The translations under genes and the position numbers were made by a program. The notes beneath the pieces were generated by a model, which was given only the letters and a program-made list of their open reading frames with translations, was not told where the DNA came from and ran no database searches. From Promethearchaeota archaeon Loki_b32 (GTDB lineage: Archaea; Asgardarchaeota; Lokiarchaeia; Sigyniarchaeales; SOKP01), in assembly GCA_005223125.1 (NCBI GenBank), contig NJBH01000057.1, forward strand, positions 1-15,672: a stretch of 15,672 nucleotides of DNA, written 5' to 3'. Below are positions 10,567-15,672 of this stretch, piece after piece. Every line of letters begins with the position of its first letter. The first letter of the stretch is position 1.

Positions 10567-11508
10567 TTACAAGTTATTTATTTCTGCTTCATATTTCAAT
10601 ATTTCATTAACAGAAATATCTCTATCAAATTTGATTTTTTTTTGAATTCCTAAATAAGCACACGCTAATTTAGCTGCAGCTGCAACTTCTGCTTTTTTAA
10701 GAGTTATCGAGTATTCATCTTGTTGGACCTGGTCATCTTCATATAGATTCTCTTGAAATTTCCTCTCATGAAATCTAATAGATCGTTCACTTTTCATTTT
10801 ATATAACAAAGAAGCCATTTTATTTGCTACTTTAAAAGGTAATTGATTCTTAACTATTAATCGAATTATATTATTAACATCAAAATAATTTAATGTATCA
10901 AACTTAGCACGAAGAAAACTTTTTAGATTTTCAGAATTATTTTCACATTCAATTTCAGTCCAATCATGGATTGCGAGTTTTCTTCTAAAAAATATTACTT
11001 CCCAATCAATATTTAATTCTTTTAATAGTTCAAATAGTAAATTATCGTTAGGTTTTCGTGATTCTATAATTATATAAAGCTGTAGACCATAGTATTTATG
11101 TTCTTGTTGAAGAAAAAAACCTCGTTGTTGCATAGAAGCAAGGATCATCACACTAATAGAGTAAATATTTTCCGATAAATTCTTCTTCCCACAATTTAAA
11201 TAAATAACATTACCTTCTTCACTTATATATTCACAATCTAAAAATCCTAAAATACTCTCTTTATTACCCTTAATAAAATCCAGTAAACCAGTAAGAGTAG
11301 GTTTAACGTCAAATTTAACCAAATCATTTTCTCCAATTGTAACATAATCATTGTAATTACTGCCAATAGCCAATTTAATAGAATTTAATTTTAATTCTTT
11401 ATCAGAACCAAATACTTTCTGAAAAGCTTCATTAATTGGTAAAATTTCTTCGTCCAAAATCTTTAAATCTGCAATGGAACTTTCATATGGTTCGGGGTCA
11501 CTTAGCAT
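10567..11508 (-). CDS. Hypothetical protein with possible C-terminal TFB/cyclin-like helical repeat; start uncertain (frame open to 11706)
   Basis: 313-aa ORF with protein-like composition. The frame continues 66 sense codons upstream of the first ATG. The C-terminus (IIRLIVKNQLPFKVANKM...VAAAAKLACAYLG) resembles a TFIIB repeat by eye. Confidence 0.7.
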   Translation of the reverse strand: MLSDPEPYESSIADLKILDEEILPINEAFQKVFGSDKELKLNSIKLAIGSNYNDYVTIGENDLVKFDVKPTLTGLLDFIKGNKESILGFLDCEYISEEGNVIYLNCGKKNLSENIYSISVMILASMQQRGFFLQQEHKYYGLQLYIIIESRKPNDNLLFELLKELNIDWEVIFFRRKLAIHDWTEIECENNSENLKSFLRAKFDTLNYFDVNNIIRLIVKNQLPFKVANKMASLLYKMKSERSIRFHERKFQENLYEDDQVQQDEYSITLKKAEVAAAAKLACAYLGIQKKIKFDRDISVNEILKYEAEINNL

Positions 11509-11894
11509 CTTATTTAATATTGGAGCTTCTGAAGCATCTACCTCAATTTCATATGATTTTGTTAAATCCTTACGGATGATACAAAAAGATTTCTTCTTTT
11601 TATTATAGATCGAAAGTGAAGTATTATCATCTATGACAGCACGAAATTTTTCAATAAATTTACCTTCTGTATTACTTGATCCTATCCTTCTTCTTCGAAT
11701 GTTTAATCAACTAAATATAGATAAAAGTATCTTATTTCTATTAATTAATTTATAAAATTTTTATCTTAAATTCTTAACTAAAAAATATTATAAGAAATTT
11801 CTTTATTAAATTAAAAATAAAAGGGCTTATAATGTTAGTAATTTTTGAAAAGGAATATGTAAATTAAAATTTGGCAACAAAGGTATTTTAATCT

Positions 11895-12074
11895 TTAATC
11901 TAATTCTCCTTCTAAAAAAAAATTATCTCCTTTCTTCACGTATATCATTGTAGAACCGAAGTTATTTCGTACTGTGTATTTATCCCCTTGGACGTCTAAT
12001 ATCTCAATAGAATAAGACAATCTTCTTTGGTCCATGATTTCTTCAATAATTTTTTTTTCTTCCTGTGAATCCAT
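11895..12074 (-). CDS. Small hypothetical protein, 59 aa (not in the ORF track)
   Basis: Manual translation gives MDSQEEKKIIEEIMDQRRLSYSIEILDVQGDKYTVRNNFGSTMIYVKKGDNFFLEGELD*. ATG at 12074, TAA at 11897-11895, with a purine-rich GTAGTGGT upstream. It looks more GC-rich than the flanking spacers. Confidence 0.7.
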   Translation of the reverse strand: MDSQEEKKIIEEIMDQRRLSYSIEILDVQGDKYTVRNNFGSTMIYVKKGDNFFLEGELD

Positions 12075-12560
12075 GATTCTTAATCATTTACCACTACAAA
12101 AAAAAGTTATTATTTTGATAATTGAATTGAATGCATGAATAGATTTAGATAATTTTAATTGTAGGATGTATCTTAAAATAGATTAAAGTTATTTATTGAT
12201 AATTAGCTTAATAAGAAACAAAAAATAAAATACTGATGATGGATTTTCACTTAACTAAATCAATTTATTATAAGAATTAAAGAAGAATGAAGTCAAGGAT
12301 CCAGATCGAATAAATTTAGCATGGTAAAGATATTACTATAACCATCTCAGTTTAAATTTTATCCGATTTCCAAAAGAACAAAAGAATTAAAAATGTTAGA
12401 AAACCTATAGGGAAAAGAACTTTCTATCAAAGTTTTAGCATTTATTATAGGTTAAACTTCATGAGATAAGATATTATCAAGTTTATCATTAAGAATTTTA
12501 ATCTTATTGTTTCTATTCTTTATTAAAAAATCGAATTTTTTTTATTAAATATTACATATT

Positions 12561-12612
12561 TTTATATAAACATGTGTTTAATTAAAATAACTATTAAAAA
12601 ACATGTTTTTTA
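12561..12612. promoter_or_regulatory. TATA box plus palindromic candidate operator upstream of the glycosyltransferase
   Basis: TTTATATA at 12561-12568; AAACATGT at 12568 and 12599; perfect 18-bp palindrome TAAAAAACATGTTTTTTA at 12595-12612. Confidence 0.45.
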
Positions 12613-12660
12613 CACGATTAGATTTTTTTAAGAACTTAGACCTTTTACCCTGGACGCATA

Positions 12661-13930: not shown

Positions 13931-14704
13931 TTAGAAGTTAAATTGTTCTCTAATTTTTTCAACTTTAATTTTACAGGGTTCACATAATTCATTTGATTTC
14001 TCATCAATCTCTTTAATATCTTTAGAAAATCTCATAACACAAGAGTTGTTAAGACAATGATCTGGACCTAAAATTATATGACCCACCTCATGAAGTATTT
14101 CTTTAAGAATTCGCATTCCTAAAAGAGTGTGATTTTCTGGTCTATTATAGAACTGTTCTTTTAACTTTAATGATGATACTATACAGCATCTATGTTTTAA
14201 GTGAGCCTCTCCAAATAAAAATAAGATGTTATCATTGTAACTTGAAAATATAGGAAGATCAGTAATTGCAAGTATCATTCCAAGATTTTCCTCATTTCTT
14301 TTATCAATTAAAATTTGGTAAAATTTATTAGTTGGATGTATTTTAATTTTATTAGAAGATTTCTTCATTTCTTTATATTCTTTTTTCACACCCTTGTAGA
14401 AAAGCTCAATAGAGAAACTATAACCTCCTAAATCTCTAATATTAAAAAAAAAAGAATCATAAATCTGATTTAAGTAAAGTTTAATTTCTTCAAAAAAGGG
14501 TATTTCAAAATCTCCAAAAAACAGAATTCCTAAATGACACGGTAATATGAGTTTTTTTGGGGTCTCATCAATTAATTCAAATTCTATAGGGTAAGAAATT
14601 CCGATTCGATAAATCAATTTTTTTAATTTTACTTTATATCTCTTAATCTTTTGCATATATTTTTGGAGTTTTGGCATTGCTAGAATATTTAAAGTTACGT
14701 CCAA
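13931..14704 (-). CDS. amzA: Archaemetzincin-family zinc metalloprotease (peptidase M54)
   Basis: ITDLPIF, FLFGEA, RILKEILHEVGHIILGPDHC-x4-CVM-FS...D-K...LCEPC (zinc motif, Met-turn and Cys4 site). The start is uncertain (TTG at 14704 or a downstream ATG). Confidence 0.88.
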   Translation of the reverse strand: MDVTLNILAMPKLQKYMQKIKRYKVKLKKLIYRIGISYPIEFELIDETPKKLILPCHLGILFFGDFEIPFFEEIKLYLNQIYDSFFFNIRDLGGYSFSIELFYKGVKKEYKEMKKSSNKIKIHPTNKFYQILIDKRNEENLGMILAITDLPIFSSYNDNILFLFGEAHLKHRCCIVSSLKLKEQFYNRPENHTLLGMRILKEILHEVGHIILGPDHCLNNSCVMRFSKDIKEIDEKSNELCEPCKIKVEKIREQFNF

Positions 14705-14832
14705 TAAGAAGTTTCTTTCTTACAGCAAAAAAAGGAAAGAAAGGATTTTATTTTATTATTAATAGGTATTTAAGTCATTAATAATATTATAAATTAAAAA
14801 CTGATATTTTAATAATATATTTGCTCAAAATT

Positions 14833-15672
14833 ATGACAGAAGTTTCTGAAGATAAAGAATATGTTAAAAAAGATTTTATCCCGCACTTTTTTCCAACTTA
14901 TAGGATAAAAAGAAGATTATATCCTTTACCTATAATTCTTGTGGTCATTATAGCGGGAATATTAGCTTATTTAACTTATTTTGAAGCGGGAATTCAGTTT
15001 GATGTGGGATATTTTTCAGAAAGCGAAATGGGAGCATTAGGTGGGATTTTAAATGGGTTAATTTATACAGCAATAGCAGTGATCTCAGCTTTTATTATCA
15101 TATTTATAATAAAGAAGAAAGGGATAGATGTCTTAAGATATATTTTTGGATTTAGTTTTGCTCTAATAGGCTTTTTTCAAACTTGGTTTTTTGGACGAAT
15201 TGTGATTTATGTGTTTTTTTTAGAATTACCACTTTTATTCTATTTACTTTATTATGAACTAATTTTTCTTTCAGCAGTTTTTACAATTCTTATGATTTAT
15301 CAATATTTTACTTCACAATCAATAAAAACAAAAAATTTTATAGTTTTATATATAGGTTTATTAATTGGCGCGTCAATGGGGGTTTTAATGCCCCTCTGGA
15401 CAACTCTAGCTATATTAATAGGGATTTCTTGTTGGGACATATTTGCTGTATTATATAAACATGGACCCATAAAACAATTAATTGATATAGCATCCACTCC
15501 AGAAGAAGATAATGACCTATCTGACATAGAACTAAAGCAAAAAATTGAAAGTGGAGAATATGAATATGATACCTCTAAATTAGAAATTGGAATAGGAGAT
15601 TTGGCATTTTATAGTATGCTAACTTCAAGTGCACTTGTTCAAACAAATAATATAATAGTGATGATTTTAACT
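14833..15672 (+). CDS. Presenilin-family (A22) intramembrane aspartyl protease, 3'-truncated by the window (not in the ORF track)
   Basis: 280 uninterrupted codons from the ATG at 14833, with about 7 hydrophobic segments. First catalytic motif MPLWTTLAILIGISCWDIFAVLYKHGPIKQL (WD at 15433-15438); second catalytic motif EIGIGDLAFYSML (GxGD at 15589-15600). Confidence 0.93.
   Translation, partial: MTEVSEDKEYVKKDFIPHFFPTYRIKRRLYPLPIILVVIIAGILAYLTYFEAGIQFDVGYFSESEMGALGGILNGLIYTAIAVISAFIIIFIIKKKGIDVLRYIFGFSFALIGFFQTWFFGRIVIYVFFLELPLLFYLLYYELIFLSAVFTILMIYQYFTSQSIKTKNFIVLYIGLLIGASMGVLMPLWTTLAILIGISCWDIFAVLYKHGPIKQLIDIASTPEEDNDLSDIELKQKIESGEYEYDTSKLEIGIGDLAFYSMLTSSALVQTNNIIVMILT

Follow-up and report, generated by a model that had tools for sequence, protein, structure and literature searches.

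Does an Asgard archaeon carry a presenilin that is closer to the eukaryotic enzyme than to the GxGD proteases usually found in archaea? The question is raised by a membrane protein reading frame that runs off the end of a contig, which an initial annotation, made from the sequence alone, took for a presenilin. Presenilin is the catalytic heart of gamma-secretase, and relevant to both Alzheimer's disease and Notch signalling, while much of the mechanistic work on stand-alone enzymes relies on the euryarchaeal presenilin homologue PSH, a distant relative. Our answer is that the locus very probably encodes a complete, stand-alone, nine-helix GxGD intramembrane aspartyl protease of the presenilin type, about 324 residues long, in a Lokiarchaeia-like Asgard archaeon.

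The window, by which we mean the whole stretch of DNA that was analyzed, has 15,672 nucleotides and is an entire contig (G000:C34:1-15672) of a genome of 4.13 Mb in 71 contigs, with an estimated completeness of 95.5%. The open frame of 280 codons that had been reported at its end is found there, on the + strand. It can start at TTG 14821 (284 codons in the window) or at ATG 14833 (280 codons), and it is still open at 15672. Close full-length homologues start with MTEVSEDKEY, which matches ATG 14833. The part of the gene in the window (14833-15672, + strand) covers TM1-TM7 and part of TM8. The frame leaves the window because the window is the whole contig, and not because the gene is broken. 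The two strings that the initial annotation had quoted, MPLWTTLAILIGISCWDIFAVLYKHGPIKQL and IGIGDLAFYSML, are both present in the translation, and both catalytic aspartates are intact as it had said, Asp202 at nucleotides 15436-15438 and Asp256 at nucleotides 15598-15600.

The 3′ end of the gene is found on another contig of the same genome, C14. The last 127 nucleotides of the window (15546-15672) are 100% identical to C14:1-127. A k-mer overlap such as this one is usual where an assembly breaks. Contig C14 extends the frame by 44 codons to a stop after TM9 (these 44 codons and the stop are at L002:128-262, outside the window), and the joined protein has 324 amino acids. The C14 part reads ...NKLLPGLPISIFLG..., and in a pairwise PDB sequence search it aligns with KKALPALPISITFG of human PSEN1. 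Downstream of the break the initial annotation had expected a PAL motif; the 3′ end is indeed intact and aligned with LPALPISI of PSEN1, but the motif itself reads P-G-L. In a genome of the same genus (G206), the genes for a glycosyltransferase (GT4), an archaemetzincin (M54, minus strand), a presenilin (PS) and a 3-hydroxyacyl-CoA dehydrogenase (HADH) follow each other on one 1.05-Mb contig. Joining C34 to C14 gives the same order. The presenilin of G206 is 83% identical across all 324 residues, and its 3-hydroxyacyl-CoA dehydrogenase is 88% identical. From the contig overlap, the in-frame 3′ end and the gene order of G206, we conclude that the presenilin gene is complete.

It would also be conceivable that the gene is truncated or disrupted here, and that we are looking at a pseudogene at the edge of a contig. 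The window by itself has no stop codon for this frame, and the genome does contain gene fragments, as seen from a 47-codon copy of the TM3-TM4 region on a different contig (C36). However, C14 starts with exactly the last 127 nucleotides of the window and stays in frame to a stop after TM9, its part of the protein matches positions 329-404 of the PF01080 profile, and the gene downstream on C14 also follows the presenilin in 5 of the 6 loci examined from f1, the clade to which the window protein belongs. Thus, we regard a pseudogene as very unlikely, and the gene as complete.

Compared to the closest full-length homologue, P0003, the window part of the protein has 99% identity and the C14 part 89%. 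This jump in divergence beyond the overlap suggests strain-level variation or recombination at that place. Probably, strain variation explains why the contig breaks inside the gene, and C34 and C14 may belong to two strains that differ slightly.

As for the fragment copy, it is a small ORF of 47 codons starting MNIFGFSFALIVFFQTWFFGE (C36:82516-82643, or L003:1497-1640, + strand), with 78% nucleotide identity to the presenilin TM3-TM4 region (about 15140-15267 in the window). It sits in an intergenic gap with unrelated genes on either side, and it may be either a relic of the presenilin gene or a small membrane peptide derived from it.

To which family of GxGD proteases does the protein belong? 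The window part alone matches the presenilin profile PF01080 with 54.7 bits, against a cut-off of 34.3, and PF01080 is the only membrane-protease family that it matches. Both halves of the gene exceed the cut-off, the window half at C34:15019-15507 (profile positions 52-208) and the 3′ half at C14:26-253 (profile positions 329-404). The full-length P0003, 99% identical to the window part, reaches 86.1 bits (2.8e-24). Neither the window part nor P0003 has any match at E ≤ 1 to PF06550, the family of PSH, or to PF04258, the family of the signal peptide peptidases (SPP/SPPL). A real PSH from Bathyarchaeia gives the reverse result: 7.6e-72 for PF06550, 2.6e-6 for PF04258, and only 0.038 for PF01080. 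The assignment to a presenilin-type (A22A-like) enzyme made by the initial annotation is thus borne out by the profiles.

A search of 5.8 billion proteins reports 474 homologues, which together with the 54.7 bits of the window part rules out a chance pattern. The best 120 of these homologues are all PF01080 proteins, nearly all of them with 310-355 residues, and their named sources are Promethearchaeota/Lokiarchaeia and other Asgard MAGs. Many proteins from Promethearchaeota MAGs are 82-99% identical to the window protein, and LCGC14_1201970 from Loki's Castle, named 'Presenilin' in UniRef, is 74% identical. Most NCBI records of Asgard and Thermoproteota proteins of this type say 'hypothetical protein'. 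The suggestion of an Asgard host agrees with these nearest named homologues, and with the presence of the gene in 129 of the 134 genomes of the window's own family.

A PDB sequence search with P0003 retrieves PSEN1 (E-value 1.3e-12) and PSEN2 (E-value 1e-8), aligned over TM1-TM6 and TM7-TM9; none of the archaeal PSH chains is retrieved, even with the threshold relaxed to E ≤ 10. When alignments are compared to each other using hhalign, 40 archaeal PF01080-type sequences match 24 eukaryotic presenilins with a probability of 99.9 and an E-value of 1e-34 over 284 columns. The archaeal set matches PSH with an E-value of 6e-16, and the eukaryotic presenilins match PSH with an E-value of only 8e-6. 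By these E-values, the archaeal family lies between presenilin and PSH, and much nearer to presenilin.

One could still argue that this is an ordinary archaeal protease of the PSH or SPP type (PF06550 or A22B-like), with a superficial resemblance to presenilin in its motifs. After all, the arrangement YD...GxGD...PxL is common to all GxGD proteases, and PSH, too, is matched significantly when profiles are compared (6e-16). But the protein lacks any PF06550 or PF04258 match at E ≤ 1 where a real PSH scores in reverse, PSH chains are absent from its PDB sequence matches, PSH forms a separate clade in the tree (100/99), and the predicted fold is nearer to PSEN1. Pfam, the PDB search, the tree and the predicted fold together refute a PSH/SPP-type identity, to which we assign a very small probability indeed. 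That the protein is nearer to eukaryotic presenilin than to PSH or SPP, as had been proposed from a few motifs, is what sequence, profile comparison, predicted fold and tree all indicate.

The individual residues tell the same story as the profiles. The TM6 catalytic aspartate is found in W201-D202 (15433-15438, + strand), equivalent to Y256-D257 of PSEN1; its context I-S-C-W-D-I aligns with 'isvyDl' of PSEN1 in the PDB sequence search. The TM7 catalytic aspartate is in the GxGD motif, G253-I-G-D256 (15589-15600, + strand). Between them is the acidic TM6-TM7 loop (residues 208-252; 15454-15588, + strand), predicted to be cytoplasmic. This short acidic loop had already been noticed; its 46 residues include 12 D/E and 5 K/R. 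On C14, P302-G303-L304 precedes TM9 and aligns with P433-A434-L435 of PSEN1 (LPGLPISI vs. LPALPISI), the middle residue of the PAL motif being Gly instead of Ala, as it is in most archaeal members. Residues D202, G253, G255, D256, P302, and L304 are invariant in 40 archaeal sequences, and D202, G253, G255, and D256 are also invariant in a 110-sequence alignment that includes eukaryotes.

Lysines and arginines are distributed unevenly: there are 7 in the N-terminus, 5 in the TM6-TM7 loop and 3 in the TM8-TM9 loop, and none in the loops on the opposite side. By the positive-inside rule, the N-terminus and the TM6-TM7 loop are therefore predicted to be cytoplasmic, which is the orientation of presenilin. 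The N-terminal cytoplasmic segment (residues about 9-27, ...DFIPHFFPTYRIKR; 14857-14913, + strand) is itself conserved, with the core [PG]-[TV]-[YF]-[RHQ]-[VI] retained in subclades f1 and f3. AlphaFold2 predicts two short beta strands in it. PSEN1 is known to form a hybrid sheet with its substrate. The N-terminal strands might join those that precede GIGD in a sheet, in the position of the hybrid sheet of PSEN1.

The AlphaFold2 model was made for P0003, using the 110-sequence alignment as input, and has a mean pLDDT of 90.6, a pTM of 0.88, and nine TM helices. It includes a helix similar to TM6a (212-221) and two beta strands, one at 243-245 and the other, running into GIGD, at 249-253. Using Foldseek, the top matches are human PSEN1 chains, with TM-scores of 0.72-0.74, 22% identity and an E-value of 3e-9, and the best among them are substrate- or inhibitor-bound states; PSH has a score of 0.56 and SPPL2a of 0.51. 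Using VIA-align, PSEN1 has a Z of 27.4-27.9 (rmsd 2.5 Å over 273 residues, 23-24% identity), SPPL2a a Z of 21.1, and PSH a Z of 20.7. The comparison with PSEN1 that the initial annotation had proposed has a positive outcome in the model, in which PSEN1 is the best match in the PDB (Z of 27.9 vs. about 21 for PSH and SPPL2a). The model may lean towards PSEN1, because eukaryotic presenilins are present in the alignment and AlphaFold2 was trained on PSEN1 structures.

For the phylogeny, we used the joined window protein together with archaeal representatives, named eukaryotic presenilins and PSH-type proteins. For the archaeal representatives, 1.84 billion cluster representatives were searched exhaustively using phmmer, with 725 matches. 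The eukaryotic presenilins are from Anaeramoeba, plants, green algae and animals, and the PSH-type proteins are from Bathyarchaeia, Thermoplasmatota and Methanobacteriota. The PSH-type proteins are the only outgroup; SPP/SPPL are absent. We inferred two maximum likelihood trees, a quick one with 126 rows and a careful one with 62 rows and 311 columns under LG+C20 PMSF, and the two are concordant. PSH is split from the rest with support 100/99 in the careful tree and 99 in the quick one. The window protein is in its own family clade, f1 (100/99), the Thermoproteota group (Thermoprotei and Thermofilum MAGs) is one clade (100/99), and the eukaryotic presenilins are one clade (100/100) with a long stem of about 2 substitutions per site.

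The backbone that connects the archaeal groups and the eukaryotes is weak, with bootstraps of 84-93. When rooted by PSH, the tree has the eukaryotes near the base, not beside any Asgard lineage, a position that may be due to long-branch attraction. The eukaryotes do not appear as sister of the window's subfamily in the free tree. When they are constrained to group with that subfamily, the log-likelihood drops by 4.6 units, and the AU test does not reject such a tree (p-AU 0.37). As far as these sequences go, a special relation between the window's subfamily and eukaryotes is neither shown nor excluded. Thus, the phylogeny proposed by the initial annotation gives a clear answer for one half of the question, in that the protein falls outside PSH (100/99), but for the other half the placement of the eukaryotes is weakly supported in a tree with PSH as the sole outgroup and without SPP/SPPL.

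How common is this gene? PF01080 has matches in 272 of the 400 genomes of the phylum, 255 of them above the cut-off, and in none of 14 control genomes. Proteins of this type are also found in Thermoproteota. On the other hand, PF06550 is found in only 13 of the 400 genomes, and a profile search with it finds no gene in the host genome. Because PF06550 is rare and PF01080 is common, a GxGD protease of Asgard archaea is normally of the presenilin type, and the window protein is not an exception but belongs as an ordinary member to a widespread Asgard family. Four weak PF06550 matches can be cross-checked (in G108, G110, G111, and G306), and the same ORFs score better on PF01080. The strongest PF06550 match is in 'Ca. 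Hodarchaeum mangrovi' (G057), on a contig of 5.9 kb (JAEOUE010000107.1; L009 / L017). We do not accept it as an Asgard PSH: with 97% identity to a Bathyarchaeota protein, it is probably a contamination of the bin.

Motifs so similar to those of eukaryotes could raise the suspicion that eukaryotic DNA contaminates this MAG, or that the gene was recently acquired from a eukaryote. Yet the neighbors of the gene are archaeal (Mch, archaemetzincin, RecJ/GAN-like) and their order is conserved in related genomes, the family is found in 272 of the 400 genomes of the phylum, identity to eukaryotic presenilins is only about 22%, and these presenilins form a clade of their own (100/100), with a long stem, outside the archaeal groups. 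Synteny and distribution refute contamination or transfer, for which we see practically no chance, and the gene is a genuine member of the Asgard family.

A presenilin on its own is not a gamma-secretase, and the genomes were also searched for the other three subunits. In the host genome (95.5% complete), Aph-1 and nicastrin have no match, and PEN-2 (PF10251) gives only noise, with in-frame stops. Across the 400 genomes of the phylum there is no credible nicastrin, APH-1 or PEN-2. The nicastrin matches in the phylum are weak and mostly partial (profile positions about 3-85), in ORFs of 340-1640 amino acids that are most likely M28-like or PA-type peptidase domains. The absence of all three partners makes this a stand-alone presenilin homologue rather than a gamma-secretase.

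A single Aph-1 match in the phylum is above the cut-off, a membrane protein of 242 amino acids in another genome (G009:C39; L117:1468-2196). It matches Aph-1 (PF06105) end to end with 26.6 bits, just above the cut-off, and YhfC (PF10086) with an E-value of 7e-14. The double match would make sense in view of a link that has been made between APH-1 and the CPBP/YhfC-like superfamily. We reject the protein as an Aph-1: it scores better as a YhfC protein, it is on a different contig from the presenilin of that genome, and it has no counterpart in the host genome.

Upstream of the presenilin, and head-to-head with it, is a gene for an archaemetzincin (Peptidase_M54; 13931-14704, − strand) with the motif HEVGHxxxGxxHC. 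The two genes are separated by a divergent intergenic region of 128 bp (14705-14832). The presenilin has this neighbor in 5 of the 6 f1 loci; loci of f26 (divergent) and f33 (tandem) have it as well (L108, L113). In the f3, f6, f7, f18, f19, f24, and f28 loci, it is absent within 4 kb. As a functional link, the pairing is suggestive, not strong. The remaining genes of the window are ordinary archaeal housekeeping genes. Between a glycosyltransferase gene and a 313-aa ORF that matches no Pfam family (10567-11508, minus strand), the window also includes a region of 1.15 kb (11509-12660) with about 25% GC, in which no ORF is longer than 60 codons and Rfam has no match. There is no Rfam match anywhere in the window.

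What would such a protein do? We infer that it is catalytically active, with substrates oriented as for presenilin, and that it has a role in housekeeping or regulated proteolysis. In the mechanism that we propose, D202 in TM6 and D256 in TM7 would lie on opposite sides of an intramembrane cavity that water can reach, and would activate a water molecule to hydrolyse the TM helix of a substrate entering laterally. P302-G303-L304 before TM9 would complete the active site, and the PGL and the strand before GxGD would shape it as in PSEN1. The N-terminus and the acidic TM6-TM7 loop would be on the cytoplasmic side, as in presenilin. From that orientation, we expect type I-like substrates whose N-terminus is outside, either single-pass membrane proteins or stubs. 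The enzyme would act alone, without nicastrin, APH-1 or PEN-2. A link to the cytoplasmic archaemetzincin, for instance in trimming the cytoplasmic fragment that is released, is speculative.

A different proposal exists in the literature, in which the main role of the protein would be that of a cation (Ca2+) leak channel instead of a protease. A survey of transporters (PMC7997004) lists homologues from Loki, Heimdall and MK-D1 under TC 1.A.54 and proposes a channel role, and this idea for Asgard presenilins is repeated in PMC9433394, which cites PSH work with both protease and channel activity. Against a channel as the main role, the catalytic aspartates, the glycines of GxGD and the P-x-L are invariant, which indicates selection on proteolysis; moreover, channel and protease roles are compatible. 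We consider a main role as a channel unlikely, and favor a protease. Apart from the passing mentions in PMC7997004 and PMC9433394, full-text literature searches report no dedicated study of Asgard presenilins. Thus, the Asgard branch of PF01080 is already known, in databases and in print, yet it is uncharacterised, and the gene in the window is an ordinary new member of it. This particular copy adds little, the family being widespread, labelled in databases and noted in print.

The family as a whole is relevant to the question of whether eukaryotes have the catalytic subunit of gamma-secretase from their archaeal host. It is possible, with the odds slightly against in our judgement, that the archaeal PF01080-type proteins are the direct ancestors of eukaryotic presenilin, passed on through an Asgard-related host and already active alone. 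If so, the catalytic subunit of gamma-secretase would be older than its three partners, and as a minimal model for the catalysis of gamma-secretase, the archaeal family would come closer than PSH. The conserved N-terminal strand and the pairing with archaemetzincin would then point to an unexplored archaeal module of regulated proteolysis. In any event, being nearer to the human enzyme (a profile E-value of 1e-34 vs. 8e-6 for PSH, and a Z of 27.9) and apparently free of partners, the family could provide the better minimal model.

We can now set the protein against the known systems. With PSEN1 and PSEN2 (A22A, PF01080; PDB 6IYC, 8X53, 9K95) it shares the Pfam family and, as predicted, the nine-TM fold. 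It also shares the catalytic D in TM6, the GxGD in TM7, a predicted N-in topology, and the motifs PxWT, AVLxxxGP, FYS and LP-x-LPISI. The model resembles the substrate- and inhibitor-bound states of PSEN1, with a TM6a helix and a strand before GxGD. On the other hand, identity is only about 22-24%, and where PSEN1 has YD, GLGD and PAL, the Asgard protein has WD, GIGD and PGL. The TM6-TM7 loop has more than 100 residues in presenilins and 46 in the Asgard protein, from which the region of the PSEN1 loop that is cleaved is missing, and the long N-terminus of presenilins is here a short conserved segment. Membership in a gamma-secretase complex is impossible in a genome without nicastrin, APH-1 and PEN-2.

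The SPP/SPPL proteins (A22B, PF04258; PDB 9K93) are, like the Asgard protein, partner-free GxGD intramembrane aspartyl proteases with a related fold (Z of 21.1). The Asgard protein differs from them in that it has no PF04258 match and an identity of 12-14%, in a comparison made by Pfam and fold only. SPP has the opposite membrane orientation to presenilin and cuts type II segments, whereas the distribution of K/R in the Asgard protein predicts the orientation of presenilin. Compared to the PF01080-type proteins of Asgard archaea and Thermoproteota that are already in databases, the window protein has no notable difference. Finally, PSH (MCMJR1 of Methanoculleus marisnigri; PF06550; PDB 4HYG, 4Y6K) belongs to another Pfam family, has no pairwise sequence match and only 14-15% structural identity (Z of 20.7), and after the first Asp it reads SVYKTKHM, in contrast to the presenilin-like AVLYKHGPIK of the Asgard protein. 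But PSH is also an archaeal GxGD protease of about 300 amino acids, with nine TM helices and a short loop, that stands alone and needs no partners, and it is in these respects the best functional analogy for the Asgard enzyme.
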